DNA from: a bacterium
GTDB taxonomy: Bacteria > Patescibacteriota > Minisyncoccia > UBA6257 > 2-01-FULL-56-20
Length of the DNA: 58,920 nucleotides
Assembly (NCBI GenBank): GCA_027310625.1
Contig: DAIDAM010000014.1
Coordinates: 1 to 58,920, forward strand
Reading direction: 5' to 3'
In this document: positions 3,376-57,080 of the stretch, in pieces
Numbering within the stretch: the first letter of the stretch is position 1
How the letters are laid out: each line of letters starts with the position of its first letter
Notes under the pieces: generated by a model
Database searches by the model: none
The model's input: the letters and a program-made list of their open reading frames with translations, nothing else
What the model was told of the DNA's origin: nothing
Program-made: the position numbers and the translations under genes

Positions 3376-3393
3376 TGCGAATAGAACAAAAAA

Positions 3394-3429
3394 ATTCGTA
3401 TATTCGTACAAATTCGTAATTTCGTAACC
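3394..3429. repeat. ttcgta word repeat (intergenic)
   Basis: Sequence is attcgtatattcgtacaaattcgtaatttcgtaacc. It belongs to the same family as 5225-5295. Confidence 0.55.
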
Positions 3430-3432
3430 ATT

Positions 3433-7195: not shown

Positions 7196-9841
7196 ATGTC
7201 CTTTATCGGAAAAATTTTCGGCGATGCGAATGAACGTTATGTGAAGTCGCTTCATCCGGAAATTGAAAAAATAAATGTCGCGGAGAAAAAATTCGCGGCG
7301 CTTTCCAGCGAAGAACTTAAATCGTCAACCGAGGAATTCAGAAGGCGGCTGAGAGAAGGCGAGGTTTTGGACGACGTTTTACCCGACGCTTTTGCCGCGG
7401 TCCGCGAAGCGGCGAGAAGAACTCTCAGTCAACGCCCTTTTGACGTCCAGCTGTTGGGCGGGATTGTTTTGCATCGCGGCGCCGTTGCGGAAATGGCTAC
7501 GGGCGAAGGAAAAACTCTTGCCGCCGTGGCGCCTTCGTATTTGAACGCGCTTTCAGGAAACAGCGTCCATATTGTGACGGTCAACGAATATTTGGCGCGG
7601 CGCGATACCGTCTGGATGGGGCAAATTTATCACGCGCTTGGAATGAAAGTTTCCTGTCTTGTGCCGAATTCCGCCTTTATTTACGACCCCCTTTATACGC
7701 GGATAAACGCGGATTCATCTGCGCAGATCCGCGCGGATGAAAATCTGCGTGAATCCGCGCTGTTGGATCGCGAACGCGATACAACGGGAGGTTTCTTGGT
7801 TCAGCAGGAGTTTTTGAAGCCGATTTCAAGGCGCGAAGCGTACAAAACGGACATTGTTTACGGCACGAATCACGAGTTTGGTTTTGATTATCTCCGCGAC
7901 AACCTTGCTTACAGAATTGAAGATCAGGTTCAGGGAGAGCGCAATTTCGCGATAATAGACGAGGTGGACAGCATTTTGATAGATGAGGCGAGGACGCCGC
8001 TGATAATTTCTGCGCCTGATACGGGGTCAAGCGAGTTCTACAAGGTCTTTGCAAGAATTGCGGAAAAACTTTCCAAGGACGGTGATTATACGGTTGACGA
8101 GAAATTCAGAACGGTGAGCATTACGCAGGACGGGATAGAGAAGGTGGAAAAGTTAATCGGAGTGAAAAATCTTTATGCCCCGGAAAACCTGCGCCTTGTC
8201 CATTTTTTGGAGGAGAGTTTGAAAGCGAAAGCGATTTTCAGGCGCGACAAGGATTACGTCGTCAAAAACGGCGAGGTGATAATCATTGACGAGTTCACCG
8301 GGCGCATGCTTCACGGCCGCCGCTACAGCGGAGGACTGCATCAGGCGATTGAAGCGAAGGAAGGAGCGGATGTCAAAGAAGAGTCGCGCACTTACGCCAA
8401 AATTTCCATTCAGAATTATTTCCGCCTTTACAAAAAAATTTCCGGAATGACGGGAACAGCGCAAACGTCGGCGGAGGAGTTCCACAAAGTTTACAATCTT
8501 GACGTCACAAGCGTTCCGACGAATAAGCCGGTCGTAAGAACCGATATGCCGGATTTGGTTTACAAAAACGAGGAGGCGAAATGGAACGCCGTAGTGGATG
8601 AAATAAAAGAAAAACAGAAGACGGGGCAGCCGGTGTTAATCGGAACGACATCAATACAGAAAAACGAACTTCTTTCCGAAAAACTTTTGAAAGCCGGCGT
8701 GCGCCACGAAGTTTTGAACGCGAAGAACAACGAACGCGAAGGCGCGATAATAGCGCAGGCGGGGAAACCCGGCGCGGTTACGGTTGCTACGAACATGGCC
8801 GGACGCGGAGTGGACATAATCTTGGGGGGTAACCCGCAAGACCCTGAGCAAAGTCGAAGAGTTCGAGAAACAGGCGGCCTTCACGTCGTCGGCACGGAGC
8901 GTCACGAAGCGCGCCGCATAGACAATCAGCTCCGCGGGCGCTCGGGGCGGCAAGGCGACCCCGGCTCGTCGCAGTTTTTCCTTTCGTTGGAAGACGATTT
9001 GCTTCGGGTTTTCGGCGGAGAAAAAATAAAGAACATGATGGAAACACTTAAAGTTCCCGAAGACCAGCCGATTCAAGCGGGATTTTTGACGAAAATCATC
9101 GCACAAGCGCAGGCAAAAGTGGAAGGTTTCAATTTTGATTTGCGAAAACGTCTTTTGGAATATGATGATGTTTTGAACCGCCAGCGAACGAGCATTTATG
9201 GAGAACGCCAGAAGATTCTCGGAAGTTTAAACAAAGAAGACATAGCAAATCTTATTTTCGAAGCCGCGGGGGGTTTTTTGAAGAACAATTTTTTCGGGGA
9301 GGATTTGCCCTTTCCGGAGGCGCGCGAGGGCGATTTGCGGAAAATTCTTATTGATTGCGGCGCTGCAAAAGAAAGCGACCTTCCGGAGCGGTGCGATTTT
9401 GAAAACGTTTCCGAGCTTTTGAAAAAAAGAAGCGCGGATTCCGCCGAGAATCCGTTTTCCAGAAATTATCTTATAAACGTTTTAGATATGTTATGGATGA
9501 ACCATCTTGAGGATTTGGAAGCGCTCGGCGAGTCGGTTGGGCTTCGCGCCTACGGACAAAGAGACCCCGTCGTTGAGTATCGCCACGAAGCCCATCGTCT
9601 TTTCAAAAGTTTCTGGAACAATTTCAACGAGTGGGTGTTTATGAACGTATTCAAGTTAGCGACCAGCGACAAGCGACAAGCGACAAGCGAAACCAATCAG
9701 CAGGCAACGCGCGTTTCTAATGGCTATACTCTAAGTTCTAACGGCCCTAGAGTAAAAATCGGCCGGAACGACCCCTGCCCGTGCGGAGCAAAATACGAGG
9801 ACGGGCGTCCCATTAAATATAAGAAGTGTCATGGGAAATGA
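7196..9841 (+). CDS. secA: preprotein translocase ATPase SecA
   Basis: Motifs MATGEGKTL, DEVDSILIDEARTPLIIS and TNMAGRGVDI, plus the C-terminal zinc motif CPCGAKYEDGRPIKYKKCHG. Confidence 0.97.
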   Translation: MSFIGKIFGDANERYVKSLHPEIEKINVAEKKFAALSSEELKSSTEEFRRRLREGEVLDDVLPDAFAAVREAARRTLSQRPFDVQLLGGIVLHRGAVAEMATGEGKTLAAVAPSYLNALSGNSVHIVTVNEYLARRDTVWMGQIYHALGMKVSCLVPNSAFIYDPLYTRINADSSAQIRADENLRESALLDRERDTTGGFLVQQEFLKPISRREAYKTDIVYGTNHEFGFDYLRDNLAYRIEDQVQGERNFAIIDEVDSILIDEARTPLIISAPDTGSSEFYKVFARIAEKLSKDGDYTVDEKFRTVSITQDGIEKVEKLIGVKNLYAPENLRLVHFLEESLKAKAIFRRDKDYVVKNGEVIIIDEFTGRMLHGRRYSGGLHQAIEAKEGADVKEESRTYAKISIQNYFRLYKKISGMTGTAQTSAEEFHKVYNLDVTSVPTNKPVVRTDMPDLVYKNEEAKWNAVVDEIKEKQKTGQPVLIGTTSIQKNELLSEKLLKAGVRHEVLNAKNNEREGAIIAQAGKPGAVTVATNMAGRGVDIILGGNPQDPEQSRRVRETGGLHVVGTERHEARRIDNQLRGRSGRQGDPGSSQFFLSLEDDLLRVFGGEKIKNMMETLKVPEDQPIQAGFLTKIIAQAQAKVEGFNFDLRKRLLEYDDVLNRQRTSIYGERQKILGSLNKEDIANLIFEAAGGFLKNNFFGEDLPFPEAREGDLRKILIDCGAAKESDLPERCDFENVSELLKKRSADSAENPFSRNYLINVLDMLWMNHLEDLEALGESVGLRAYGQRDPVVEYRHEAHRLFKSFWNNFNEWVFMNVFKLATSDKRQATSETNQQATRVSNGYTLSSNGPRVKIGRNDPCPCGAKYEDGRPIKYKKCHGK
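7697..7790. repeat. tccgcg/ctgcg word-repeat insert in secA
   Basis: Sequence is cgcggataaacgcggattcatctgcgcagatccgcgcggatgaaaatctgcgtgaatccgcgctg, read as RINADSSAQIRADENLRESAL. Boundaries are approximate. Confidence 0.55.
9658..9695. repeat. gcgacaa word repeat inside the secA C-terminal linker
   Basis: Sequence is agcgaccagcgacaagcgacaagcgacaagcgaaacc, read as ATSDKRQATSET. Confidence 0.55.
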
Positions 9842-10153: not shown

Positions 10154-10861
10154 ATGAAGAAAAATCAGTTATCTGACGCCGAAATCAAAAATAGAAAAAC
10201 AAGGGCTGCCGAAATAATAAAGACGCTGAAGCGGCTTTTCCCGAACACAAAAATCGCTCTCCGCTACAAAACGCCGTGGGAGCTTTTCGTCGCCGTTGTT
10301 CTTTCGGCGCAGTGCACCGACAAGAAGGTGAACGAGGTCACGGAAAAACTTTTTTCCGCCAAAGGCGCCGCGCCCGCCGTCGGGCAGGGATCCGCCTCGG
10401 GCGGAAAGAAATATAAAACTGTTGATGATTTTGCCAAAGCCGATTTGAAAGCATTGGAGCAAATAATCCGACCTACCGGCTTTTACCATAATAAAGCTAA
10501 AAATATTATCGCGGCTGCTAAAGTATTAAAAGAAAAGTTCGGCGGGAAATTGCCGAGGACAATGGCGGAAACGCTGACATTGCCGGGTGTCGGAAGAAAA
10601 TCGGCAAATGTGATTCTCGGAAACGCTTACGGCGTCATTGAAGGAATAGCGGTTGATACTCACGTCCGCCGCCTTTCGAAAAAACTCGGACTGACAAATC
10701 ACGACGACCCGGTCAAGATTGAACGGGATTTGATGGAAATTGTTCCGAAGAAAGATTGGTTCAATTTCACTTATCTGATGATTGATTACGGCAGAAAATA
10801 TTGCCCGGCTCGCCCCCACACCAAAGAACGTTGTCCTTTGTACAAATTTGAAAAACATTAA
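10154..10861 (+). CDS. nth: endonuclease III
   Basis: Has FVAVVLSAQCTD, the HhH-GPD motif LPGVGRKSANVIL and VDTHVRR. Cysteines are present in the C-terminal region. Confidence 0.9.
   Translation: MKKNQLSDAEIKNRKTRAAEIIKTLKRLFPNTKIALRYKTPWELFVAVVLSAQCTDKKVNEVTEKLFSAKGAAPAVGQGSASGGKKYKTVDDFAKADLKALEQIIRPTGFYHNKAKNIIAAAKVLKEKFGGKLPRTMAETLTLPGVGRKSANVILGNAYGVIEGIAVDTHVRRLSKKLGLTNHDDPVKIERDLMEIVPKKDWFNFTYLMIDYGRKYCPARPHTKERCPLYKFEKH
10355..10405. repeat. 51-bp TCCGCC...GGCGGA palindromic insert in nth
   Basis: Sequence is tccgccaaaggcgccgcgcccgccgtcgggcagggatccgcctcgggcgga. It spans 17 codons and is read as SAKGAAPAVGQGSASGG. Confidence 0.65.
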
Positions 10862-12416: not shown

Positions 12417-13196
12417 ATGTACCAATTAAACAGCCTAAAAAAGATTCCCAGTTTGGTTCACGGATTTTCCGAGGTGAAGGATGGTAATATGGCTTTTAAG
12501 TGGGGTGATAAAAAATTGGTTTTTGAAAATAGAACGCGATTTCTTTCGGCCCTGGGAATAAAACCGGAACATTGCGTAATTTCCGCCGTCTCACACGGTA
12601 CAAACATCGCAGTCATAAACTCAAAAGACGATGCGGGGATTGAAAATGGTTTTCGCACAGTGAACGCAGACGCGGTTATGACGAACAAGAAAGAAATATT
12701 TCTCGGGATTTTGACCGCGGATTGTCTGCCGGTAATAGCCTACGATAAAACAAGCGGCGCGATCGCCTTGGTTCACTTGAGCAGAATGAACACGCCTAAG
12801 GATTTTATCAGTTTAGTAATTAAAAAAATGAGTTATGAATATAGCACAAGAATTCCTGATTTGATTGTCGGCATTGGTCCCGGAATACGGAAAGAATCCT
12901 ACATATTCACTGACGAAGAACTTAAAATGCGCGTGCCCGACGAAAAAATTTTTAAGGGATTTGTTATTAACTTGCCCGTCGGCCCGCTTCGCCGAAGCGA
13001 AGGCGAGGCGGGCAAAAAAGCGATAGATTTGGTCGGCTACAGCGTAAGCGAATTTGTTTCAGCCGGCGTGTCGGAAAAAAATATAGAAGTGAGCGAGATA
13101 GACACTGCGGCGGACAAAAATTTTTTTTCGCATTACCGCTCGCGCTCAACAGGAGAATTGGAAGGACGGATGCTTACGATTATTGGAATGGTGTAG
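12417..13196 (+). CDS. pgeF: YfiH/PgeF (DUF152, laccase-domain) family protein
   Basis: VHGFSEVKDGNM, LTADCLPV and FFSHYR motifs. It carries a GC-rich hairpin insert at about 12970-13016 (LPVGPLRRSEGEAGKK). Confidence 0.8.
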   Translation: MYQLNSLKKIPSLVHGFSEVKDGNMAFKWGDKKLVFENRTRFLSALGIKPEHCVISAVSHGTNIAVINSKDDAGIENGFRTVNADAVMTNKKEIFLGILTADCLPVIAYDKTSGAIALVHLSRMNTPKDFISLVIKKMSYEYSTRIPDLIVGIGPGIRKESYIFTDEELKMRVPDEKIFKGFVINLPVGPLRRSEGEAGKKAIDLVGYSVSEFVSAGVSEKNIEVSEIDTAADKNFFSHYRSRSTGELEGRMLTIIGMV

Positions 13197-13258
13197 TAGA
13201 GGAGAAAATGGCGGAGGAGAAAAATGTGAAATTTGAGGGTAAATATTATTTTTGTGAA

Positions 13259-13290
13259 CTATTCTAATATTCTTAAGAATATTAGAATAG
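13259..13290. repeat. P32 palindrome, perfect copy
   Basis: Sequence is ctattctaatattcttaagaatattagaatag. It ends 31 nt upstream of the ArsR-like gene. Confidence 0.85.
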
Positions 13291-13320
13291 GTTTTAAGAA
13301 TAAAATGCTATAATAAATGA

Positions 13321-13590
13321 ATGAAGCAAACTAGAAAACTCGAGAGAATAGTAAGGGGTTTTTCTAACCATCGGCGAATCGAAATCCTGGATTTATTAGA
13401 GAGAAAGCCAGAACTTTCGTTATTTGAAATTTCAAGAGAACTGAATGTGAATTTCAAAACAGCATCCGAGCATGCCCGCAGGCTAGCAATTGCCGGCTTG
13501 GTGTTGAAGCGATATGAGGGTAATTCTGTTCGCCATTGCTTGTCGCCGCTTGGCAAGTCCATTCTCAAATTCTTAAGAATATTGGAATAG
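13321..13590 (+). CDS. ArsR/SmtB-like winged-helix transcriptional regulator
   Basis: RRIEILDLLERKPELSLFEISRELNVNFKTASEHARRLAIAGLV is a typical HTH. The last 10 codons and the stop are provided by a P32 copy. Confidence 0.7.
   Translation: MKQTRKLERIVRGFSNHRRIEILDLLERKPELSLFEISRELNVNFKTASEHARRLAIAGLVLKRYEGNSVRHCLSPLGKSILKFLRILE
13559..13590. repeat. P32 palindrome, degenerate copy forming the 3' end of the ArsR-like ORF
   Basis: Sequence is ccattctcaaattcttaagaatattggaatag. Confidence 0.7.
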
Positions 13591-13627
13591 ATTTTTTGTT
13601 TAAGACACATTTAGGGCACCTAAGGAG

Positions 13628-14209: not shown

Positions 14210-14389
14210 ATGGTTATTTCTGTCACCGCCGCATCGGGGAATTTGTACTCTTGTTCGGAGTGCGGGTTTAATTACAGAGACAAAGAAACGGCGGAGAAAT
14301 GCGAGAAGTGGTGCAAAGAACACAAAAGCTGTAACGTGGAAATAATCAAATATGCCGTCAAAGAAAGCGAGCGGGATAAAGAGAGATAA
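14210..14389 (+). CDS. 59-aa Cys-rich (zinc-ribbon-like) protein, hypothetical
   Basis: The ATG lies 2 nt after the thioredoxin stop. The sequence YSCSECGFNYRDKETAEKCEKWCKEHKSC contains CxxC and a further Cys cluster. It is below the ORF-track size cut-off and overlaps the gdh start by 38 nt. Confidence 0.45.
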   Translation: MVISVTAASGNLYSCSECGFNYRDKETAEKCEKWCKEHKSCNVEIIKYAVKESERDKER

Positions 14390-15689
14390 GTTTGGCCCCG
14401 AATATATCGTCGAAGTTTATGACCCGGCACTTGGGATGGAGGGGTTTTTAGTTATTGATAACACCGCGCTCGGCCCGGGCAAGGGCGGGATACGGATGAC
14501 TCCGGATGTGACCGCGGAGGAAATTTTCCGGCTGGCGCGAACGATGACGTGGAAAAACGCTCTTGCGGGAATTCCTTTCGGCGGCGCCAAAGCCGGAATT
14601 GTCTGGCCGCCTCGACGTACTCGAGACAGGAGAGACGGTTCGGATGTCCCTTTTAATTCGGATGGGCGCATTCGCCCGCCCGCCTTGCTTCGCAACGCGA
14701 AGCGGGCAGGCAGCGCGCTTTCGGATGCCCTGAAGAAAAAATTTATCCAAAGTTTCGCGCGGAGAATTTCCGTTTTCACGCCGAGGAAATATATTGCCGG
14801 GCCGGACGTTAATACCGGCGAACGGGAAATGAAATGGTTCGTGGAAGCGACGGGGAACTGGCGGAGCGCCACGGGCAAGCCGGCGAATGTTTGCATAGAA
14901 ACTTTCGGCAGGGGAACCGCCCGCCTTAAAGCGGGCGAGCCTCGCCCCGCCAGCTGGCGGGGCGGGAAATGCGGCATACCGCACGAATTCGGCAGCACCG
15001 GTTTCGGTGTCGTGGAATCAACCGAGGTCGCCGCCGAACTTGCCCTCCCAAGTTTCCGAAGCAGAAATTTGGGAGGGTGGGCCGGGATTCCCCTTGAAAA
15101 CGCGACCGTTGCCATTCACGGCTTCGGTAACGTCGGAACGTTTACCTATGAGTTTTTGAGAGCAAAAGGCGCGAAAGTTGTCGCGCTTGCCGACAAAAGC
15201 GGTGCCGTGTTTTCAAAAAACGGATTCGACAGAAAAACGATTGCGGAAGCGATTGCCCGAAAAAAATCTCTAACCGCCGTTTTTCCGAAGTCCAAAATAA
15301 GCGAGAAAAAATTCTGGGGTTTACCGGTGGACATACTGATTCCCGCTTCCGTTACCGACGTCATCAACGATTCCAACAAAAATTCCATCTGCGCCAAAAT
15401 CATTGTCGAAGCCGGAAATATTCCAATGAGCGAGAAAATCGAAAAAGAACTTTTCCGAAAAGGAATTTTGATCATTCCCGATTTTGTCGCCAACGCCGGC
15501 GGCGTAATTTCGTCCTACGCGGAATACCGAGGATACAATCCCAAAAAGATGTTCGATTTGGTCAGCAGAAAAATCAGGGAAGCGACGCGTCTTGTTTTGG
15601 AGCAAAGCATCAAAGAAAAAAGAAATCCCCGCGACGTCGCGATGGAAATCGCCGGTAAAAAAGTTGAAGAGAGAATGAAAAGAATATAA
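14352..15689 (+). CDS. gdh: Glu/Leu/Phe/Val dehydrogenase family enzyme (probable glutamate dehydrogenase)
   Basis: FLVIDNTALGPGKGGIRM, GGAKAGI, AGPDVNTGE and the Rossmann motif AIHGFGNVG. It is interrupted by three palindromic inserts. Confidence 0.85.
   Translation: MPSKKASGIKRDKFGPEYIVEVYDPALGMEGFLVIDNTALGPGKGGIRMTPDVTAEEIFRLARTMTWKNALAGIPFGGAKAGIVWPPRRTRDRRDGSDVPFNSDGRIRPPALLRNAKRAGSALSDALKKKFIQSFARRISVFTPRKYIAGPDVNTGEREMKWFVEATGNWRSATGKPANVCIETFGRGTARLKAGEPRPASWRGGKCGIPHEFGSTGFGVVESTEVAAELALPSFRSRNLGGWAGIPLENATVAIHGFGNVGTFTYEFLRAKGAKVVALADKSGAVFSKNGFDRKTIAEAIARKKSLTAVFPKSKISEKKFWGLPVDILIPASVTDVINDSNKNSICAKIIVEAGNIPMSEKIEKELFRKGILIIPDFVANAGGVISSYAEYRGYNPKKMFDLVSRKIREATRLVLEQSIKEKRNPRDVAMEIAGKKVEERMKRI
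14608..14725. repeat. Insert 1 in gdh (GC-rich palindromes)
   Basis: Contains ctcgacgtactcgag and cccgccttgcttcgcaacgcgaagcgggcagg, read as RRTRDRRDGSDVPFNSDGRIRPPALLRNAKRAGSALS. Boundaries are approximate. Confidence 0.55.
14910..14995. repeat. Insert 2 in gdh (two GC hairpins)
   Basis: Contains cccgccttaaagcgggc, ccccgccagctggcgggg and tgcggcataccgca, read as GTARLKAGEPRPASWRGGKCGIP. Boundaries are approximate. Confidence 0.55.
15043..15077. repeat. Insert 3 in gdh: CCCTCC..GGAGGG hairpin family
   Basis: Sequence is ccctcccaagtttccgaagcagaaatttgggaggg. It belongs to the same family as 26136-26167 and 57004-57036. Confidence 0.65.
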
Positions 15690-17825: not shown

Positions 17826-18554
17826 TTGCTTAAAAACTATTATGACTTGGTGACCAAACTCTCCCGTTCCAAAATCGATTTGCTCGCCGAATGTCCGCGC
17901 TGTTTCTGGCTGGAAATGAAAAAAGGCGTGAAGCGCCCCCAGCCGTTTCCTTACACCATCAATAACGCCGTTGATTACCTGATGAAGCAGGAGTTTGATA
18001 TTTATCGCGAGAAAGGCGAGCCGCATCCGGTGATGGTTGAAAACGAAATAAACGCCGTTCCTTATCAAAACGAAAAACTGAACGAGTGGCGGCACAATTT
18101 CACGGGCATCAGGCATACGCACGAGCCGAGCGGATTCGAAGTGTTCGGGGCGGTGGACGACATCTGGGTCAATCCCGACGGCGAACTTATTGTCGTCGAT
18201 TACAAAGCGACGGGCGCGAACGAGCACAAAGTTCAAGATTCCTACCGCCGGCAGATGGAAGTTTACCAGTGGCTTTTGCGGAAAAACGGATTCGAAGTTT
18301 CGCCCGTCGGGTATTTCGTTTTTGCGAGAGTTAATAAAGGGAATGGTTTTTCCGCCCAAGGCGGATCCGCCTCTGGCGGAGGCAGGCAAGCCGTTTTACC
18401 CTTCAATTTTTTCATTGAGTCGCACAAAGGCGACGATTCCTGGATCGAAGGGATTTTGTCGAAAGCGCGGGAAGTTTTTGATTCCGACGAAGCTCCGAAT
18501 TCCTCCGCGGCTTGTCAGTACTGCGCCTATCGCGAAGGCGCAAATGGTGTCTAA
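17826..18554 (+). CDS. PD-(D/E)XK nuclease family protein (Cas4/RecB-like fold with Cys cluster)
   Basis: An N-terminal CPRCFW, then GAVDDIW...LIVVDYKATG (the D..DxK core), YRRQMEVYQWLL, and a C-terminal CQYCAYR. Confidence 0.7.
   Translation: MLKNYYDLVTKLSRSKIDLLAECPRCFWLEMKKGVKRPQPFPYTINNAVDYLMKQEFDIYREKGEPHPVMVENEINAVPYQNEKLNEWRHNFTGIRHTHEPSGFEVFGAVDDIWVNPDGELIVVDYKATGANEHKVQDSYRRQMEVYQWLLRKNGFEVSPVGYFVFARVNKGNGFSAQGGSASGGGRQAVLPFNFFIESHKGDDSWIEGILSKAREVFDSDEAPNSSAACQYCAYREGANGV
18351..18383. repeat. 33-bp TCCGCC..GGATCC..GGCGGAGGC insert in the nuclease gene
   Basis: Sequence is tccgcccaaggcggatccgcctctggcggaggc, read as SAQGGSASGGG. Confidence 0.75.
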
Positions 18555-18578
18555 TCTCGAGATGTGTCTTCTGATAAT

Positions 18579-18610
18579 CTATTCTAATATTCTTAAGAAT
18601 ATTAGAATAG
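18579..18610. repeat. P32 palindrome, perfect copy
   Basis: Sequence is ctattctaatattcttaagaatattagaatag. Confidence 0.85.
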
Positions 18611-18667
18611 ATTTTTGATTTAATGCATTGACCGAATCTCCGTTTGTAAACAAAGATGATATAATTT

Positions 18668-18994: not shown

Positions 18995-19046
18995 AAAACT
19001 GATGTCAGATGACAGCGAGATTGAGAAAACGACATTGATAATGAGT

Positions 19047-19084
19047 TACTATTATTTAGTCACAATTGTGATATAATTATAGTA
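19047..19084. repeat. P38 palindrome
   Basis: Sequence is tactattatttagtcacaattgtgatataattatagta. Confidence 0.8.
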
Positions 19085-19116
19085 AATCATAAAATCAAAT
19101 CCCGCGATTCAAAACA

Positions 19117-19950: not shown

Positions 19951-19986
19951 GGATTCCGGTACAAAGCAAGTGAACCGATTGAGCGT

Positions 19987-20024
19987 TACTATAATATAAT
20001 CACAATTGTGATATAATTATAGTA
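19987..20024. repeat. P38 palindrome between divergent genes
   Basis: Sequence is tactataatataatcacaattgtgatataattatagta. The right arm contains TGATATAAT. Confidence 0.8.
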
Positions 20025-20104
20025 ATTAGTTACTAGTTATCAGTTATCAGGGATTAGCGACTAATAATAAGATAACGGAAACTAAAAGCCGGTGACTATA
20101 AAGA

Positions 20105-22920: not shown

Positions 22921-24027
22921 ATGAAACTTTCTATTGGGATTGTCGGTTTGCCGAATGTCGGCAAATCAACTTTATTTAAAGTTCTCACGAAGCAAAATAT
23001 CAACATCGCCAATTACCCGTTCGCGACCATTGACCCGAACGTCGGTGTCGTGACGGTTCCCGATGAGCGTTTGCAAAGATTAGCCGACATCAGCAAATCC
23101 AAAAAAATTATTCCGGCGGTCGTGGAATTTTACGACATCGCCGGTTTGGTCAAGGGCGCGAACAAAGGCGAGGGACTCGGCAATCAATTTTTGTCGCACA
23201 TCAGGGAAACGCAGGCGATCGTTATTGTAATTAGGATATTTAGAAATTCAGAAATTATACATGTCGAGGGAAATGTAGACCCACTGCGCGACCTCGAGAT
23301 AATAAACAGCGAGCTGGCGCTGAAGGACTTGGAAACAATAGAGAAGCGGCTGAAAAGTTTGGAAGCGGAGAAAAAAAGTGGCGACAAAAAGGCGGCAAAA
23401 AATTTCGAGATTTTGAGTAAAATCCGCGAGGAGTTGGGCGCCGGCAATTTAGCAATGAAATACTTGCCGGAATTGAACACTTCGACTGACGCTCAGGGTT
23501 TCGCGCAAGCGAAAGAAATAATTCGCGAATTGCAATTGCTGACGGCGAAAAAACAGATATACCTTTTGAACGGCTCGCCCTCCGAAATTTTTGCGGGAGC
23601 AAAAACTTGGGAGGGCAAATTCGATGCCCCGCATGCCTTACTCGACAAAATCAAGGAACTCGGTGGCGATTACATCATTGCCGATTTGGCTTCGGCTGAC
23701 GCAGTTCCGGAATTGATTAAAAAATCATACGAAACTCTAGGCTTGATAAGTTTTTTCACTACCGGCGAGGACGAAACGCGCGCCTGGACGATAGAAAAGG
23801 GAACGCTCGCGCCGCAAGCCGCCGGCGTGATTCACACCGATTTCGAAAAGAATTTCATCCGCGCCGAGGTGGTTTCTTATGAGAATTTGATGGCGGCTGC
23901 CCATTCGATAAGCTCAGGGCAAGCCCAGGGGGCTTGGAACCAGGCGAAGCAGAAAGGATTAATCCGTTTGGAGGGGAAAGAGTATGAGGTTAAAGACGGC
24001 GATGTGATGGTTATTAGACACGGGTGA
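22921..24027 (+). CDS. ychF: ribosome-binding ATPase YchF
   Basis: GIVGLPNVGKSTLF, the DIAGLVKGA motif, and a C-terminal TGS-like region ending EGKEYEVKDGDVM. The gene ends with TGA. Confidence 0.92.
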   Translation: MKLSIGIVGLPNVGKSTLFKVLTKQNINIANYPFATIDPNVGVVTVPDERLQRLADISKSKKIIPAVVEFYDIAGLVKGANKGEGLGNQFLSHIRETQAIVIVIRIFRNSEIIHVEGNVDPLRDLEIINSELALKDLETIEKRLKSLEAEKKSGDKKAAKNFEILSKIREELGAGNLAMKYLPELNTSTDAQGFAQAKEIIRELQLLTAKKQIYLLNGSPSEIFAGAKTWEGKFDAPHALLDKIKELGGDYIIADLASADAVPELIKKSYETLGLISFFTTGEDETRAWTIEKGTLAPQAAGVIHTDFEKNFIRAEVVSYENLMAAAHSISSGQAQGAWNQAKQKGLIRLEGKEYEVKDGDVMVIRHG

Positions 24028-24057
24028 CAGACTGACGACGAAAACATCATTTACTGC

Positions 24058-24095
24058 TACTATTATTAAATCACAATTGTGATATAATCATAGTA
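24058..24095. repeat. P38 palindrome
   Basis: Sequence is tactattattaaatcacaattgtgatataatcatagta. TGATATAAT lies at 24080-24088, and the next ATG is at 24131. Confidence 0.8.
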
Positions 24096-24130
24096 GTCGA
24101 AATTTCTCCAATTTTTTATTAAAAATTAAA

Positions 24131-33602: not shown

Positions 33603-33703
33603 GCGAGTTTAGATTAAGAAAATAAAGGGGCGGACTAGCGTTTTCTTTTTTCGTATTTTCCGCTTAACATTGAAGTATTGAATAAAGTGAAATGGTTCAT
33701 TCG

Positions 33704-33729
33704 CTCATTCGCGCGAATGGTGGAATGAG
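33704..33729. repeat. 26-bp hairpin element CTCATTCGCGCGAATGGTGGAATGAG
   Basis: An identical 26-mer occurs at 58343-58368, and a variant at 44020-44041. Confidence 0.75.
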
Positions 33730-34576
33730 AAAAAGCAAACCAAAATACGTAATCGGTATTGATAAGGTGGGTCGTGCCGCCCCAAAAGGGCGGGCCTCTC
33801 GCCTCGCTGGAGCTAAGGCGAAGCGGACGCCCCGTAAATATGTAATTGGTATCGACGAGGTGGGGCGGGGCGCTCTCGCGGGGCCGGTGGTCGTGGCGGC
33901 GGTTTGTTTTCCGACAAAATTGAGAGTGCGGAACGCGGAACTCGGCGCGTTGAAGGATTCCAAAAAGCTTTCGCCGAAGGCGCGCGAACGCTGGCTCGAA
34001 CATTTTAAAACTGTTCCCGAAATATTATCGCGAACAGCCAGAGTTTATCCGCGAAAAATAGAAAAAATAAACATCTCGCAGGCGGCAAACCGCGCCGCAA
34101 CTTCGGCGCTGGAACGCGTCATCGAATCCGTTTTCGCCAGTAGGACAAAAAAACATTCTAACATTCTGCAGAATGTTAGAATGTTCAAATCTATGCCGGG
34201 AACAAACTATTCTAATATTCTTAAGAATATTAGAATAGATATTTTTCTTGATGGGGGATTGTATTTAACGAATAAAATTAATCCTTCGATAAACTTCCTT
34301 CGACACGGCTCAAGACAAGCAGGGCGAATGATTGTCAAAACAATCATTCGGGGCGACGAGAAAATCGCCGCCATCAAAATCGCTTCCATCATCGCCAAAG
34401 TGCAGAGGGACAAGTATATGAAAAAACTTTCCCGAAAATATCCGCGCTATGACTTTGAGATGCACAAGGGATACGGGACAAAAATGCACCGCAGGGCCAT
34501 CAGAAAACACGGGCCTAGCGAAGTTCATAGATTGACGTTCTTGAAGAAATCCCATAGAATTGCTAATAGCAAATAG
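33725..34576 (+). CDS. rnhB: ribonuclease HII
   Basis: IGIDEVGRGALAGPVV (the catalytic DE motif) and a C-terminal HKGYGTKMHRRAI. The start is uncertain (33692 or 33725). The N-terminal KYVIGID(K/E)VGR is duplicated and the gene contains two P32-type inserts. Confidence 0.85.
   Translation: MRKSKPKYVIGIDKVGRAAPKGRASRLAGAKAKRTPRKYVIGIDEVGRGALAGPVVVAAVCFPTKLRVRNAELGALKDSKKLSPKARERWLEHFKTVPEILSRTARVYPRKIEKINISQAANRAATSALERVIESVFASRTKKHSNILQNVRMFKSMPGTNYSNILKNIRIDIFLDGGLYLTNKINPSINFLRHGSRQAGRMIVKTIIRGDEKIAAIKIASIIAKVQRDKYMKKLSRKYPRYDFEMHKGYGTKMHRRAIRKHGPSEVHRLTFLKKSHRIANSK
34154..34183. repeat. P32 variant (CTGCAG centre) in frame in rnhB
   Basis: Sequence is cattctaacattctgcagaatgttagaatg, read as HSNILQNVRM. 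Confidence 0.75.
34207..34238. repeat. P32 perfect copy in frame in rnhB
   Basis: Sequence is ctattctaatattcttaagaatattagaatag, read as YSNILKNIRID. Confidence 0.85.
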
Positions 34577-41425: not shown

Positions 41426-41463
41426 TACTATCATCATATCACAATTGTGATTATATGATAGTA
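41426..41463. repeat. P38 palindrome (between convergent genes)
   Basis: Sequence is tactatcatcatatcacaattgtgattatatgatagta. Confidence 0.8.
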
Positions 41464-42929: not shown

Positions 42930-42967
42930 ACTATGATTATATCACAATTGTGATATAGTAATAGTAA
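42930..42967. repeat. P38 palindrome
   Basis: Sequence is cactatgattatatcacaattgtgatatagtaatagta. It ends 32 nt upstream of the next ATG. Confidence 0.8.
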
Positions 42968-43907: not shown

Positions 43908-43920
43908 CTTGTCGGCCAAT

Positions 43921-43952
43921 CTATTCTCATATTCTTAAGAACATTAGAATAG
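43921..43952. repeat. P32 variant copy
   Basis: Sequence is ctattctcatattcttaagaacattagaatag. Confidence 0.8.
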
Positions 43953-43966
43953 TTTGTTGACAAAAA

Positions 43967-43996
43967 TATTCTCATATTCTGCAGAATGTTGGAATG
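43967..43996. repeat. P32 variant (CTGCAG centre)
   Basis: Sequence is tattctcatattctgcagaatgttggaatg. Confidence 0.75.
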
Positions 43997-44111
43997 TTTC
44001 GTGGTTGCTTTATACCCCTCCCTAATTCGTGCGAATAAGGGATATAAAAATTCGCTTCAAAATTTTTGTTTGTGGCTTTTTCAGCTACAATCAGTATGTT
44101 TGCTAAATCTT

Positions 44112-44347: not shown

Positions 44348-45286
44348 TTATTTTCTTCGCCTTCCGTGAAAAGTTTTATGAATCTCGCGCAATTCCTTGT
44401 TGGTGAGGTGAGTGTAAATCTGCGTCGTGGAAATGTTGGAATGGCCGAGGAGCGATTGCACGGAGCGCAAATCGGCGCCGTTCATCAATAAGTCCGTCGC
44501 AAACTGATGGCGCAGCTGGTGGGGCGTAATGTGTTCTGCAATTCCCGCTTTTCTGCCGTAAAAATTCACCAGACGCTGAACGGCGCGGGGAATGATGCGA
44601 CCTATCACTTTGACTGGTCTCTTGTCGCCGGTCGCTTTGGTTAAACTCACGAACAACGCTTCGTCCGCGTCCGTCCGCTTGCCCAGATAATTTTTAATCG
44701 CTTTTTTGGCGCGGTCGGAGAGAAAAACGACGCGCAGTTTGTCGCCTTTGCCGCGGACGGTGATTTCTCCGCGAGCCAAATCAATGTAGCGGCTGAGCGA
44801 ACATAATTCCGAAATGCGGAGGCCGGTTGAAAAAAACGTTTCGAGAATCGCTTTGTCGCGGAGTGAGCGCAAATCCGAGCCGCTCGGCGCCGAAAGCAAG
44901 CGCTCAAGGTCGCCGTATTCGATTATGGAAATCTGGCGGCTCGGCGCTTTCGGCAGTTCGATTTTTTCGGCGGCGAGAGTTTCGATGTCGCGTTTGGTGA
45001 GATATTTTAAAAAATTTCTGATGGCGATGACGTAATAATTCTGCGTGATTTTTTTCAATGGACGGGCTCGCCCTCCCAAGTGTTTTTCCGAAAAATTTGG
45101 GCGGGCGAGCGCGAGGCGGAAATTTCTGACGGCGGCGTCCGTTATGTCGGAAGGAGATTTTATTTTCGCGGCGGATATGAATTCCTTCAGGTAATGCTCA
45201 TAACTTTCCCGCGTCTTCGGCGAGCGGTTTCGTTCAATTTCCAAATAATTCAAATAATCGGTTAAGAATTTTTGTATGTCAGTCAT
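44348..45286 (-). CDS. tyrosine recombinase, XerC/XerD-like
   Basis: N-terminal SAM-like domain (YLEIERNRSPKTRESYEHYL), then RDKAILETFFSTGLRISEL, HQLRHQFATDLL, and LLGHSNISTTQIYTH (the R..HxxR..Y catalytic set). Confidence 0.9.
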   Translation of the reverse strand: MTDIQKFLTDYLNYLEIERNRSPKTRESYEHYLKEFISAAKIKSPSDITDAAVRNFRLALARPNFSEKHLGGRARPLKKITQNYYVIAIRNFLKYLTKRDIETLAAEKIELPKAPSRQISIIEYGDLERLLSAPSGSDLRSLRDKAILETFFSTGLRISELCSLSRYIDLARGEITVRGKGDKLRVVFLSDRAKKAIKNYLGKRTDADEALFVSLTKATGDKRPVKVIGRIIPRAVQRLVNFYGRKAGIAEHITPHQLRHQFATDLLMNGADLRSVQSLLGHSNISTTQIYTHLTNKELREIHKTFHGRRRK

Positions 45287-46274: not shown

Positions 46275-46862
46275 ATGACTGATAACAATAAAGACAAGCA
46301 AAACCCCTCTAGCCAGCCGATTCCGAAGCCGGAACCGTCTCGACAGAGTTCCCGCTCGGAGAGCGAGGTCCGCCCCGCAGGGGCGGCGGGGCAAGCAGGC
46401 TCGGACGAAAAGCTTGCCGCTTGCGAAAAGCAGCGTGACGAATATCTCGCCGGCTGGCAGAGGGCAAAAGCCGATTTTCTGAATTACAGAAAAGACGAGG
46501 CGGCGCGATTTGAGCAAATGATTAGGTTTGCGAACGAAGACCTTTTGGAGGAATTAATAGAAGTTCTGGACAGCTTTGATTTGGGTTTACAGGCGCTCGA
46601 AAAAAAGGGGCCAGTGGAGAAAGGGGTTTACATGATTCGCTCAAAACTGGAGGATGTGATGAAGCAACGCGGCGTTGAGCGCATATCGGTAAAGGTTGGC
46701 GAAAAATTTGACCCCTCTTTAGCGGAAGCGATAGTTGAGGCGGAATCCGAACAGCCGTCGGGAACAATTGTGGAAGTAATTGAAAACGGCTACAAGCTTA
46801 ACGGAAAAATTTTGAGGCCGGCGAGGGTGAAAGTTAGCCGCGGTATGCAAACATCGGCATAA
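46275..46862 (+). CDS. grpE: nucleotide exchange factor GrpE
   Basis: YLAGWQRAKADFLNYRKDE, and a C-terminal FDPSLAEAI...GYKLNGKILRPARVKV. Confidence 0.9.
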   Translation: MTDNNKDKQNPSSQPIPKPEPSRQSSRSESEVRPAGAAGQAGSDEKLAACEKQRDEYLAGWQRAKADFLNYRKDEAARFEQMIRFANEDLLEELIEVLDSFDLGLQALEKKGPVEKGVYMIRSKLEDVMKQRGVERISVKVGEKFDPSLAEAIVEAESEQPSGTIVEVIENGYKLNGKILRPARVKVSRGMQTSA

Positions 46863-47064: not shown

Positions 47065-48993
47065 ATGGCAAAAATTTTAGGCATAGATCTCGGTACGACC
47101 AACTCCGCGATGGCGATTGTTGAGGGGGGCGAGCCGCGCATTCTTGAAAATGCAGAGGGGGCAAGAACGACTCCCTCCGTTGCCGCGATAAGCAAAGCTG
47201 GCGAACGCCTTGTCGGGCTTCTCGCCAAAAGACAGGCGATAACGAATCCCAAAAACACAATCTTTTCCGTGAAGCGTTTGATAGGCAGGAAGTTCGCCGA
47301 CGCCGAAGTGCAGCGCGACAAGGCCTGGCTGCCTTACGACCTTCAGGGAAGCGCGGCCGGCGGCGTGGAAGTGAAAATGTCCGCCCCTGCGGGGCGAGAT
47401 CTCGCCCCCGGAGGGGGCGGAGGCGATAAATGGTACTCGCCGGAGGAAATTTCTTCTTTCATTTTGGCGAAACTCAAAGCCGACGCCGAGGCGAAACTCG
47501 GAGAAAAAATAGAGGAAGTGGTGATTACTGTTCCGGCTTATTTCGACGACTCCCAAAGGCAGGCAACCAAAAACGCGGGCGAAATCGCCGGCTTGAAAGT
47601 GCGCCGGATTATCAACGAACCGACGGCGGCGGCGCTCGCTTACGGTTTGAACAAGCAAAAGAACGAAAAAATAGTCGTTTACGACTTCGGCGGCGGAACT
47701 TTCGACGTTTCCGTTCTGGAAGTCGGCGACGACACTGTTGAAGCGCGCGCCACGGGCGGCGACACGCATCTCGGCGGCGACGACTTTGATAAAAGAATCA
47801 ACGAGTACCTTGTCGCCGAATACAAAAAACAGGAAGGAATAGACATTTTCAAAGACCCGCTTGCGCTCCAGCGTTTGAAAGAAGGAGTGGAACGCGCGAA
47901 ACATGAACTTTCAACGGTTGCCGAAACGGAGGTGAATCTTCCTTATATCACTTCCGATGCTTCCGGTCCGAAACATTTTTTGCTCAAACTTTCGCGCGCG
48001 AAGCTGGAATCGCTCGTTCAGGACTACATTGACCAGTCGATAAAACTGACGGAAGAGACGGTGAAAAGCGCCGGCTTCCAACTTTCTGAAATCAACGAAG
48101 TGATTCTCGTCGGCGGACAAACGAGAATGCCGGCGATGCAGGAAGCGGTCAAGAAACTTTTCGGCAAGGAACCGCACAAAGGAATCAATCCCGACGAAGT
48201 CGTGGCGCTCGGCGCCGCGGTGCAGGCGGGAATTTTGCAGGGGGATGTAAAAGACATCCTTCTTCTTGATGTAACTCCTCTCACTTTGAGCATAGAGACG
48301 CTTGGCTCCATTGCGACGCCGATGATTGTGAAGAATACGACTATCCCCACGTCAAAGACGCAGGTTTTTTCAACTGCAGCCGATAATCAGACCTCCGTTG
48401 AAATTCATGTTCTCCAAGGCGAGCGTCCGATGGCGGCGGACAATAAAACCCTCGCGCGTTTCGTTTTGGACGGCATTCCGCCTTCGCCGCGCGGATTGCC
48501 GCAGATTGAAGTTATGTTCGACATTGACGCGAACGGAATACTGAACGTTTCGGCGAAAGACAAAGCGACGGGAAAATCGCAGTCGGTGAGAATCGAGGCC
48601 TCCACCAGTTTGTCGAAAGACGAAGTTGAGAAATTGAAGAACGAGGCGGCGAAGTACGCTTCGGAAGACCAGAATAAACGCGACCTCGCCGAAGCAAGAA
48701 ATCAGGCGGAAGCCCTGATTTACACGGCCGAAAAAGCCGTCAAAGACCTGTCCGCGCCCACTAGCGCAGGCGGGCAGGCGGGCGCCGGCGACAAACTAGC
48801 TGCCGACGCAAGGTCCGCAATAACGGCAAAAATAGACGCTCTTAAAAAATTGCTTCAGGAAAACAGAGATGCTGACGCAATAAAATCGGGCATCGCCGAG
48901 CTTTCGGCGGAAATTCAGAAAATAGGGCAGAGCGCCTACAGCCCTCAGGACGAGGGAGAAAATAATCCGGAGACAGATAATCAAGCTAAATAA
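47065..48993 (+). CDS. dnaK: molecular chaperone DnaK
   Basis: [33 protein letters not shown] and the substrate-binding domain. It contains a 45-bp palindromic insert. Confidence 0.97.
47380..47424. repeat. 45-bp TCCGCC..AGATCT..GGCGGAGGC insert in dnaK
   Basis: Sequence is tccgcccctgcggggcgagatctcgcccccggagggggcggaggc, read as [15 protein letters not shown]. Confidence 0.75.
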
Positions 48994-53471: not shown

Positions 53472-54650
53472 ATGGGTAAAGATTACTACAAAATTCTCGG
53501 CATTGATAAAAGCGCTTCCGATGAAGAAGTAAAAAAAGCCTACCGTCGACTGGCGCATAAATACCATCCCGATAAAGCGGGCGGCAACGAAAGCAAATTC
53601 AAGGAAATAAACGAAGCGTATCAGGTGCTTTCGGACAAATCCAGGCGCGCGAATTACGACCGCTTCGGCGCGGCGGAGCCGTTCTCCGGATTCGGCGGAA
53701 AAAATCCTTTCGAGGGGTTTTCGGTTGATTTCGGGGGTTTTGGAAGCGGTTTCTCCGCCGGAGGCGGACCAGCCTCGGGCTGGGGCGGCGGGCCGGGATT
53801 CAATCAAGATTTTTCTTTTTACAACGCCAGCGACGTGAGCGACATGTTTGAAAACTTTTTTGAAGAACTCGGCGTAAAACCGCGAAGGCGAACCTACGAG
53901 CGCGGCTCCGACATAGAGGTTATTCAGGAAATAACTCTTGAAGAGGCGTTTCGCGGAACGATGCGCGACGTAAGAGTAAATCTTTTTGTCACGTGCAGCG
54001 AATGCAAGGGCAGAGGCGGCGATTTATCCGCCGGAATGAAGACATGCGAAACATGTTCGGGGAAGGGCGAAATACGCGAGAAAAGGCAGACGTTTTTCGG
54101 CAGCTTTTCGCAAATAAAAACCTGTGACAGATGCCGCGGTTCGGGAAAAATACCGAACAAAATTTGCAGAGCGTGCAGCGGCAGCGGAAGAATGCGCGGC
54201 GAAAGAAACGTCAGGATCGAAATTTTGCCCGGCGTCCAGGACAACCAAATAATAAAAGTTAAAGGAGCAGGAGAGGCGGGCGAACTCGGGACGCCCGCGG
54301 GAGATCTTTATGTGCGGTTGAAAATAGCGCCCCACTCCGTTTTTGAACGAAGAGGCGACGACCTTGTTGTAAGGAAAGAATTGAAGATAGTTGACCTTCT
54401 TCTCGGAAAGAAAATTGAAGTGCCGACGATAAGCGGCGGAAAAATTTCGGTTGAAATACCGGCTCACTTCAATTTAAGAGATGATTTGCGGATACCAGGA
54501 GAAGGAATGCCGCACCTCTCCGCCGGAGGCGGATCCGCCTTTGGCGGAGGCAACAGAGGGAACTTGCTCGTGAATTTCGTTATCAAGGCCCCGAAAAAAT
54601 TAAGCCACAAAGCGAAAAAACTTCTTGAAGAATTGGAGAAGGAAGAGTAG
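53472..54650 (+). CDS. dnaJ: molecular chaperone DnaJ
   Basis: J domain (DYYKILGI...HPDK), a G/F region, and four CxxCxGxG zinc motifs. It contains a 33-bp palindromic insert near the C-terminus. Confidence 0.95.
   Translation: MGKDYYKILGIDKSASDEEVKKAYRRLAHKYHPDKAGGNESKFKEINEAYQVLSDKSRRANYDRFGAAEPFSGFGGKNPFEGFSVDFGGFGSGFSAGGGPASGWGGGPGFNQDFSFYNASDVSDMFENFFEELGVKPRRRTYERGSDIEVIQEITLEEAFRGTMRDVRVNLFVTCSECKGRGGDLSAGMKTCETCSGKGEIREKRQTFFGSFSQIKTCDRCRGSGKIPNKICRACSGSGRMRGERNVRIEILPGVQDNQIIKVKGAGEAGELGTPAGDLYVRLKIAPHSVFERRGDDLVVRKELKIVDLLLGKKIEVPTISGGKISVEIPAHFNLRDDLRIPGEGMPHLSAGGGSAFGGGNRGNLLVNFVIKAPKKLSHKAKKLLEELEKEE
54519..54551. repeat. 33-bp TCCGCC..GGATCC..GGCGGAGGC insert in dnaJ
   Basis: Sequence is tccgccggaggcggatccgcctttggcggaggc, read as SAGGGSAFGGG. 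Confidence 0.75.
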
Positions 54651-56971: not shown

Positions 56972-57001
56972 AGGGCGCCGCTTCGGCGGCCCTTTTATTT
57001 T
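56972..57001 (+). terminator. Intrinsic terminator
   Basis: Stem agggcgccg, loop cttc, stem ggcggccct, followed by tttatttt. Confidence 0.65.
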
Positions 57002-57003
57002 CA

Positions 57004-57036
57004 CCCTCCTAAATTTCTTTCAGAAATTTTGGAGGG
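57004..57036. repeat. CCCTCC..GGAGGG hairpin family
   Basis: Sequence is ccctcctaaatttctttcagaaattttggaggg. It is followed at 57037-57080 by ctgcgt/cagcgt/ccgcat word repeats. Confidence 0.65.
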
Positions 57037-57080
57037 TAAATCTGCGTCAGTCAGCGTTAAGTCAGCGTAAGTCCGCATAA

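Follow-up and report, generated by a model that had tools for sequence, protein, structure and literature searches.

Short palindromic double-hairpin elements, probably selfish, lying in frame in conserved genes of Patescibacteria

Contig DAIDAM010000014.1 of a Patescibacteriota bacterium (58,920 nucleotides, GenBank assembly GCA_027310625.1; here called the window) carries GC-rich palindromic blocks within the reading frames of four unrelated genes, dnaK, dnaJ, nth, and a gene for a PD-(D/E)XK nuclease. What are these blocks, and how did they come to lie in conserved coding DNA? The blocks consist of small adjacent hairpins, and three of the four are copies of a 30-bp element, T30. They are inserted precisely and without duplications, prefer certain flanks, occur in many copies and many genomes, are biased to one reading frame, keep their hairpins as they evolve, and resemble one another within genomes. 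We put the probability that they form a family of selfish insertion elements, very short, palindromic, and non-autonomous, at roughly 0.65.

Results

The basic module is a 15-nt GC-rich hairpin with a 6-bp stem (TCCGCC/GGCGGA) and a 3-nt loop. T30 is made of two inverted modules, 30 bp in all, and is centred on GGATCC. The first loop is rich in purines (RRA), and the second is its pyrimidine-rich near-complement (TYY), so the two units are inverted copies of each other. All window blocks are on the + strand, and every unit is read TCC GCC nnn GGC GGA, or Ser-Ala-x-Gly-Gly (SAxGG). An earlier note on the window had described four blocks, which lie where it placed them (Table 1), and Pfam confirmed their host genes. 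Its block lengths needed correction. The blocks of 33 bp in the nuclease gene and dnaJ are real elements, each of 30 bp plus a host GGC. The block of 45 bp in dnaK is a 42-bp element (47380–47421, T42), and the codon GGC that directly follows at 47422–47424 belongs to the host. The GGC after the window elements was assigned to the host because GGC or Gly is also present at empty sites, that is, in orthologues without the block (the conserved "GD" in DnaK). Sequence GGCGGAGGC is therefore the element plus one host codon. The 51-bp block in nth is also real and resolves into an ordinary 30-bp T30 with a nested 21-bp insert at 10367–10387. Besides these four, two more hairpin blocks of the window, at 53754–53783 and 46369–46386, start with the TCCGCC arm.

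These counts exceed chance. The window has a G+C content of ~47%, and DnaK similarity places its genome near Candidatus Liptonbacteria among uncultured Patescibacteria. The pattern TCCGCC-N10-40-GGCGGA occurs 4 times against 0.29 expected (0/100 shuffles reach 4), the shorter TCCGCC-N1-9-GGCGGA has 6 matches where 0.12 would be expected (a count that shuffles never equalled), and GC-rich hairpins with 6-bp stems number 25 overall against 3.8 in shuffles. Under window codon usage, an SAxGG peptide takes palindromic codons with a probability of 0.0087, and 6/7 SAxGG peptides in the window do so. The signal resides in DNA rather than protein, because this palindromic codon choice far exceeds codon usage. 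The blocks might instead be a chance or compositional by-product, either Gly-rich loops written in favoured codons or the result of template-switch (fold-back) mutations. Gly is written most often in the window as GGC (45%) or GGA (28%), GGCGGA has twice its expected frequency there, and one copy lies within the Gly/Phe-rich region of DnaJ. Set against this are shuffles that never reach the observed counts, the low probability of palindromic encoding for each unit, and the same 30-mer in loci of 30–35% G+C, which make this explanation highly improbable. Fold-back copying of neighbouring sequence was rejected, as empty sites have neither palindrome arm.

The segments are lineage-specific insertions, as the earlier note had proposed, since the majority of orthologues lack them. 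In DnaK, 84/120 closest relatives have the empty site VEVKM^GDK (the caret marks the insertion point), and the DNA reads ATG^GGA GAC in relative L005 and ATG-42 bp-GGC GAT in the window. In Nth, 116/120 relatives have EKLF^KKY. The L140 nth gene is empty (CTA TTC^AAA AAA), and the syntenic nth of L139 (79% identity) reads TTC-T30-AAG, with the loops of the window copy and without the nested 21 bp. The nuclease gene of the closest relative, L141 (82% identity), is empty (GGT TTC^GGC AAG, GNGF^GKG), and the window reads TTT-T30-GGC. Seven relatives lack the dnaJ insert and read CAC TTT^GGC AAT or similar. T30 and T42 enter as exact 30- or 42-bp blocks, and host bases are neither duplicated nor lost. 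No target-site duplication was found in the filled/empty DNA comparisons at the four window loci. Adjacent direct repeats of at least 3 bp accompany 6/123 T30 copies, and ~2 are expected from shuffled flank pairs; duplication was rejected as a general feature on these numbers, despite suggestive cases in L039, L065, L066, and L107.

At the GNGF^ site of the nuclease, some relatives carry another patchy insert, A(S/A)PAEA(L/S)REGG (P0133, P0134, P0136, P0137, P0167, P0210, and P0236).

Several alleles occupy the dnaK site. Relatives L001 and L002 (DnaK 86% identical) carry T30 precisely where the window has its 42-bp element. Their T30 equals that of the window nuclease gene over all 30 bases, including both loops, and is likewise followed by GGC. 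Variants of 36 and 42 bp share the site in L003 and L128-L131. The 36-bp version (T36) is TCCGCC-yCT-rCG-GGGCGAGA + TCTCGCC-TCT-GGCGGA, and in the 42-bp version hairpin 2 is lengthened by complementary triplets. The centre is GGCG-A-GATC-T-CGCC in the dnaK type and GGCG-GATC-CGCC in T30. As read from these sequences, the dnaK element is a 36/42-bp derivative of T30 whose centre and second stem would have grown symmetrically. All dnaK T30 alleles (4/4) start with SAQ, whose Gln comes from the rare loop CAA. The motif SAP(A/T)GRDL is common to every 36/42-bp allele. A relaxed-pattern scan for the 36/42-bp type found eight loci, of which L137 and L138, both on GC-rich contigs, are probably chance partial matches. 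This type is rarer than T30. Beyond dnaK, it occurs in two other genes, identified tentatively by their motifs. One, in L134, has the GyrB-like C-terminal motif QRYKGLGEMNP, and the other, in L132, is methyltransferase-like and holds a copy with a different, fully compensated second stem. When metagenomes were scanned with a strict pattern for the 42-bp type (TCCGCCNNNGCGGGGCGAGATCTCGCC), nothing matched.

The DnaK insert aligns within K106-A111 of Escherichia coli DnaK (2KHO). In the AlphaFold model, residues 108–119 form a coil between strands 100–107 and 120–124 of the nucleotide-binding domain. The model is poor as a whole (mean predicted local distance difference test score [pLDDT] of 60), with pLDDT <50 over nearly all of residues 107–119, so the placement in a surface loop that the earlier note raised rests mainly on the alignment.

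DPSxxSGQA(K), the third type of insert and one that also exists in longer forms, lies two codons downstream of the T30/T42 site in 25/120 DnaK relatives (P0004-P0007, P0021, P0025, and others). It is scattered through the tree and sometimes differs between near-identical DnaK proteins (P0021 versus P0023). The single copy seen as DNA (L004, 10325–10372) is not obviously palindromic.

T30 was searched for in one genome per species with the pattern TCCGCCNNNGGCGGATCCGCCNNNGGCGGA, which has 24 specified bases. Further copies exist outside the window. At least 120 stretches matched, with at least 126 copies of the exact 30-bp type in at least 107 other assemblies, and we estimate the chance expectation to be well below 1. 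The counts that follow refer to the matches listed, all of which are metagenome-assembled genomes (MAGs). By record title, 63 stretches are from Patescibacteria of many classes and 10 are from Omnitrophota. The other labels are Kiritimatiellae, Lentisphaerae, Planctomycetes, Verrucomicrobiota, Ignavibacteria, Margulisiibacteriota, Auribacterota, Firestonebacteria, Chloroflexota, and third-party annotation (TPA) "Gammaproteobacteria." The G+C content of host loci goes down to 30%. Hosts identified by Pfam include DnaG, AspRS, UvrB, ValRS, HsdR, and RpoC. Two viral contigs in IMG/VR have an exact T30 (L126, 4886–4915; L127, 390–419), too few to argue for a phage vector, which was not retained as a candidate.

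An assembly or sequencing artefact, or contamination with a synthetic linker, might be suspected from the BamHI-containing GGCGGATCCGCC, for which cloning primers are the only literature matches. The copies come from MAGs of many independent studies and assemblers, have variable loops, and lie in frame in intact genes. Some are conserved between related MAGs of different projects, and decayed copies with compensated stems exist. An artefact is the least probable of all the explanations considered, and we give it almost no weight.

The coding bias that the earlier note predicted is present. Element lengths peak at 15, 30, 36, and 42 nt. Of 126 copies, 79 are in the SAxGG frame of open reading frames (ORFs) of at least 100 aa and 34 are intergenic or in short ORFs. 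Another 13 are nominally in other frames; the majority of these lie upstream of the real start, leaving ~2–3 credible cases. Selection could produce this pattern. With the palindrome axis in mid-codon, either orientation in one frame would give Ser-Ala-x-Gly-Gly twice, a small flexible peptide that surface loops would tolerate. The other two frames would give Arg-rich or Pro-rich peptides, and selection against coding copies of that kind would account for the near confinement to one frame and for the additional intergenic copies.

The flanks are biased to TTY-T30-RAA, with T at −2 and A at +2 in ~83–85% of copies. Copies inside and outside coding sequence show it equally, so the bias operates at the level of DNA and not of protein. 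It is a target preference, and flanking TTT/AAA was rejected as part of the element, because empty sites have the adjoining Phe and Lys (or Gly) codons too. Both flanks fit in 52/78 coding copies (67%), with 69% expected at ~83% per side, and the two sides appear to be independent. TTY^RAA is used in most genomes and TTY^GGC in the lineage of the window.

In some genomes with labels other than Patescibacteria, T30 stands within a larger repeated or palindromic unit. These include L007, L010, and L055 (labelled Kiritimatiellae), L008 and L123 (labelled Verrucomicrobiota), and likewise L040, L080, L119, and L125. Examples are ...CTCCCCCTT-T30-AAGGGGGAG... and ACACGTTTT-T30-AAAACGTGT. The arrangement suggests insertion at the centres of other palindromes or composite elements.

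The small hairpins are maintained as the copies diverge. DNA folding gave z scores of −3.3 to −4.4 for the window elements, with −3.5 for T42 and −4.4 for the nuclease T30, which forms two hairpins. Degenerate copies change both sides of the stem within one unit (TTCGCC/GGCGAA, CCCTCC/GGAGGG, and CCCGCC/GGCGGG). Compensatory changes also occur in hairpin 2 of the dnaK type, and a two-hairpin model on eight 36/42-bp sequences, a small sample, gave 100% pairing and 2 covarying pairs. A single long hairpin was rejected as the relevant structure, as its covariation was at chance and degenerate copies compensate within each 15-nt unit. Selection or hairpin-templated repair could keep the small hairpins intact.

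A signal that benefits the host under positive selection might be conserved in this way, either as a DNA or RNA motif (for binding, processing, or an uptake-like tag) or as a flexible Ser/Ala/Gly linker. The stem is strongly conserved with compensatory changes, essential genes are among the hosts, RNase III is encoded in the window, and a copy can persist across speciation, as in nth, where the window and L139 have identical loops. The majority of orthologues nevertheless work without the insert, and no shared context links the positions, which are spread over intergenic DNA and unrelated genes. Selection cannot be acting on the peptide, because the sequence is the same in intergenic copies and codon choice is palindromic. 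Stems of 6 bp are short for RNase III substrates, and the uptake signals of Neisseria and Haemophilus accumulate through point mutation rather than 30-bp indels. A host signal is thus improbable, although less so than a product of composition.

Copies within one genome resemble each other. The loop variant is identical in 11/24 within-genome T30 pairs among the matches listed, compared to 4.9% between genomes, and 0/5000 permutations equalled this. At least five of these pairs have unrelated flanks. Copies that multiply within genomes and occur under many phylum labels would imply horizontal spread. Nested inserts lie at the same point, GGC^GGA, in two independent T30 copies, those of window nth and L046.

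Host recombination and repair could be responsible without a dedicated enzyme, and this is the main rival explanation. Rare palindromic insertions would arise once and then be spread and homogenised by hairpin or cruciform cleavage (e.g., by SbcCD-type nucleases), repair of the break through ectopic gene conversion from other palindromes with matching arms or through homologous recombination with DNA acquired from relatives, and hairpin-templated fill-in growth. The dnaK alleles look single-origin and patchy, with SAQ at the start of every T30 and a T36 lineage sister to a T30 lineage. The changes are symmetric, both at the centre (GGCG-GATC-CGCC to GGCG-A-GATC-T-CGCC) and in the complementary triplets added from 36 to 42 bp. 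Compensatory changes are frequent, elements are nested at the same point, some genomes have T30 in the middle of longer palindromes, and the 24 window ORFs scanned include no transposase. Left unexplained are the first arrival of an identical 30-bp block at TTY^R in non-homologous sites (nth, nuclease, dnaJ, RpoC, and DnaG, among others) and its occurrence in assemblies of many phylum labels. We consider this rival unlikely, but the most credible of those weighed here.

The two further hairpin blocks of the window are less regular (Table 1). In the variant double hairpin of the dnaJ G/F region, which folds as two hairpins, the second stem (CCAGCC/GGCTGG) is the T30 stem with two compensated pairs changed. 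The region has 7 residues more than L001 DnaJ and is of low complexity, so its status as an insertion is less certain. The single hairpin at 46369–46386 is similar to hairpin 1 of the dnaK element, to which it may be related. Its ORF, 46275–46862, matches ORFs at called GrpE positions in L001 (67% identity), L005 (80%), and L129 (61%). The nuclease gene probably starts a few codons downstream of 17826 (database protein P0121 has 234 aa).

Table 1. Palindromic elements and their host genes in the window
Feature	Position	Strand	Sequence or annotation
T42 in dnaK	47380–47421	+	TCCGCCCC-TGC-GGGGCGAGA + TCTCGCCCCC-GGA-GGGGGCGGA; centre AGATCT; 14 residues
T30 in PD-(D/E)XK nuclease gene	18351–18380	+	TCCGCC-CAA-GGCGGA + TCCGCC-TCT-GGCGGA; SAQGGSASGG
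T30 in dnaJ, C-terminal domain	54519–54548	+	TCCGCC-GGA-GGCGGA + TCCGCC-TTT-GGCGGA; SAGGGSAFGG
T30 in nth, with nested insert	10355–10405	+	Loops AAA and TCG
Nested 21-bp insert in nth T30	10367–10387		GCCGCGCCCGCCGTCGGGCAG; AAPAVGQ; at GGC^GGA
Variant double hairpin, dnaJ G/F region	53754–53783	+	TCCGCC-GGA-GGCGGA + CCAGCC-TCG-GGCTGG; SAGGGPASGW
Single hairpin, N-terminal part of GrpE-corresponding ORF 46275–46862	46369–46386	+	TCCGCCCC-GCA-GGGGCGG; different frame, VRPAGA
Host gene dnaK	47065–48993	+	Pfam HSP70, E = 2e-234
Host gene dnaJ	53472–54650	+	Pfam DnaJ, DnaJ_CXXCXGXG, DnaJ_C
Host gene nth (endonuclease III)	10154–10861	+	Pfam HhH-GPD, HHH
Host gene for PD-(D/E)XK / Cas4-like nuclease	17826–18554	+	Pfam PDDEXK_1

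Other palindromes

Sites were also compared without selection between the window and four syntenic relatives (L139, L001, L005, and L129). Hairpins of other families make up many of the in-frame indels. A second family, CCCTCC(C/T)AA(G/A)TTT...AAATTTGG(G/A)GGG, includes a 39-bp palindrome (15042–15080, CCCTCCCAAGTTT...AAATTTGGGAGGG) that, by comparison with L139, is inserted in frame in glutamate dehydrogenase, and a copy in the Xer-like recombinase gene (45063–45113), which has 12 aa more than in L001 and L005. Further copies are at 57000–57040, at ~23580–23625 (− strand), and in a Saccharibacteria MAG (L035, ~7273). A third family has the core CGC(T/C)(T/C)CGCCGAAGCGAAG and forms a 30-bp in-frame insertion in a Cu-oxidase_4/YfiH-like gene (12978–13007); a related 30-bp copy is nested in the L046 T30 (7584–7643) at GGC^GGA.

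Single cases were also seen. secA has a 45-bp in-frame insertion relative to L139 (7706–7750, NADSSAQIRADENLR), a long hairpin with loop AGATCC and z = −4.45. The glutamate dehydrogenase ORF (14352–15689) has adjacent hairpins GGGCGA-GCC-TCGCCC and CCCGCC-AGCT-GGCGGG at 14933–14961, read AGEPRPASWRGG. A GtrA-like gene of L139 (called at 2986–3639) has a 33-bp in-frame perfect hairpin, TACCCCCACACCAAA-AAC-TTTGGTGTGGGGGTT, that the window orthologue lacks. The N-terminus of ORF 33692–34576 (33692–33900) reads YVIGIDKVGR ... YVIGIDEVG, with 21 residues between that include hairpin CCGCCCCAAAAGGGCGG (33777), and has the look of a local duplication into which a hairpin was inserted. This ORF best matches an ORF of L129, on whose locus an RNase HII gene is called.

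Two palindromes are AT-rich. The intergenic ACTAT(T/A)AT...ATCACAATTGTGATAT...ATAGTA occurs at 19041–19090, 19986–20025, 24057–24096, 41426–41463, and 42930–42965, and may be an operator or promoter-type motif common to several intergenic regions. The second, (A)ATCTATTCTAATATTCTT + AAGAATATTAGAATAG(ATT), occurs with variants at 13243–13306, 13555–13594, 18576–18613, 34152–34185, 34207–34238, 43917–43956, and 43964–43999. Where compared with the ORF list, copies such as those at 13243, 18576, and 43917 follow directly after probable genes or fall between them. The CTT + AAG at the centre is reminiscent of the TTY^RAA bias in the flanks of T30. Rfam found two tRNAs in the window and nothing else.

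Discussion

The selfish palindromic element in coding DNA that the earlier note proposed is supported. Three outcomes could have gone against it (the same residues in distant orthologues, a lack of further copies, and no length bias in coding copies), and none of them was seen. Our preferred guess for the mover is an enzyme that acts in trans and recognises DNA hairpins or cruciforms. Enzymes of the HUH/Y1 family insert and excise precisely without duplications, and such a "peel-and-paste" transposase would fit the absence of duplications and the seemingly precise empty sites, though we hold this guess with low confidence.

Several points weigh against a mobile element. Mobility is deduced from comparative patterns, with no movement observed directly. 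Each dnaK insert type may stem from one insertion, whose later distribution would reflect descent, loss, or homologous recombination and not repeated hits. The three T30 copies of the window differ in their loops. HUH transposases constrain one flank only, and the symmetric flank preference (~83% on each side) fits known enzymes poorly. The Pfam scan of 24 window ORFs found no transposase and only one type of recombinase, a conserved Xer-like tyrosine recombinase, and Pfam calls on the loci of syntenic relatives add no transposase. Some labels outside Patescibacteria, such as TPA "Gammaproteobacteria," come from record titles only, and T30 copies were counted per listed stretch or assembly rather than per complete genome.

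A selfish insertion family nonetheless remains our preferred reading, and a broader proposal can be attached to it tentatively, with more doubt than belief. T30 and its sibling families might be substrates of an unrecognised insertion route. It would act in trans, recognise hairpins or cruciforms, and place palindromes of 30–45 bp, consisting of terminal inverted repeats only, bluntly at TTY^R with no duplication and across phyla of uncultured bacteria that live together. Such palindromes would then be a major systematic cause of loop insertions in proteins of Patescibacteria.

A literature search by sequence, by peptide, and by palindromic, in-frame, and candidate phyla radiation (CPR) themes found no description of the element in the full texts covered. 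If our reading is correct, T30 would be the smallest dispersed insertion element colonising coding DNA known to us. An element with an invariant stem would be common to Patescibacteria and to assemblies labelled Omnitrophota, Planctomycetes-Verrucomicrobia-Chlamydiae (PVC), and Ignavibacteria, among others, in core genes such as rpoC, dnaK, dnaG, uvrB, and those for tRNA synthetases. Its defined sequence, TTY^RAA preference, and many filled/empty pairs would give a tractable handle on the insertion mechanism, and T30 would account for some of the numerous loop insertions that are lineage-specific in CPR proteins. In metagenomes, T30 is also a recognisable marker for gene-level recombination and for strain typing. 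Such segments should be allowed for in annotation and alignment pipelines, and GC-rich intragenic hairpins may cause local trouble in assembly or coverage.

Relation to known elements

The earlier note had named Rickettsia palindromic elements (RPE) as a precedent, which is apt for the way of working and not for family membership. Like T30, RPE are palindromic repeats that lie in frame in unrelated, often essential genes and add a tolerated peptide; their size and in-frame insertion have been reviewed (PMC10969869). RPE are ~100–150 bp long, form about ten families, and are confined to Rickettsia, whereas T30 has 30 bp (36–42 in the dnaK type) and occurs in Patescibacteria and under other labels. 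Length, host, and the TTY^RAA preference set T30 apart from RPE, a comparison that does not extend to RPE consensus sequences. To our knowledge, the transposition mechanism of RPE is unknown.

Mitochondrial double-hairpin elements were reportedly described by Paquin et al. in 2000. These elements, GC clusters, and repetitive hairpin-forming elements (in Allomyces, yeasts, and sponges) show presence/absence polymorphism, are intergenic and sometimes in frame, and move by an unknown mechanism. They share with T30 two adjacent GC-rich hairpins dispersed in a lower-G+C genome, coding regions included. They differ from T30, which is on a bacterial chromosome, in being organellar (fungi and protists) and in having unrelated sequences. 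We know of none that is as short and invariant as T30 or common across phyla.

Repetitive extragenic palindromes (REPs) and their inverted doublets (REPINs) resemble T30 as GC-rich palindromes of 20–40 bp that form an inverted doublet of two hairpins and insert with no target duplication. REPs are mobilised by the transposase RAYT, an HUH enzyme like those of IS200/IS605, whose gene is typically flanked by REPs; hairpin recognition on single-stranded DNA would fit the anatomy of T30. REPs are extragenic, and one of their ends is tagged with GTAG or CGTC (PMC3733652). The T30 flank logo, TTY-TCCGCC...GGCGGA-RAA, has no such tag, and, unlike extragenic REPs, most T30 copies are intragenic, with 79/126 in the SAxGG frame of long ORFs. 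No HUH transposase was found in the 24 window ORFs scanned with Pfam; a RAYT gene was not looked for outside the window.

[quoted passage not shown] T30 likewise has terminal inverted repeats, namely, its two 15-nt units. MITEs typically have 50–500 bp, internal sequence derived from insertion sequences, and target-site duplications, whereas T30 is two abutting repeats with no internal sequence and no duplication. DNA uptake sequences (USS/DUS) arise by point substitution, unlike T30 copies, which are 30-bp indels relative to orthologues.

Palindromic DNA is also translated in the mitochondrial genes of Nematomorpha (PMC6649704) and in the palindromic repeat-coding elements (PARCEL) of Mollicutes (PMC2996958). 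Both orientations of the palindrome give acceptable peptides, as in T30. These palindromes are much longer, belong to other hosts, have other sequences, and are not dispersed as 30-bp insertions. T30 lacks defining features of RPE, REP/REPIN, and MITE, and it works like RPE and the mitochondrial double-hairpin elements.

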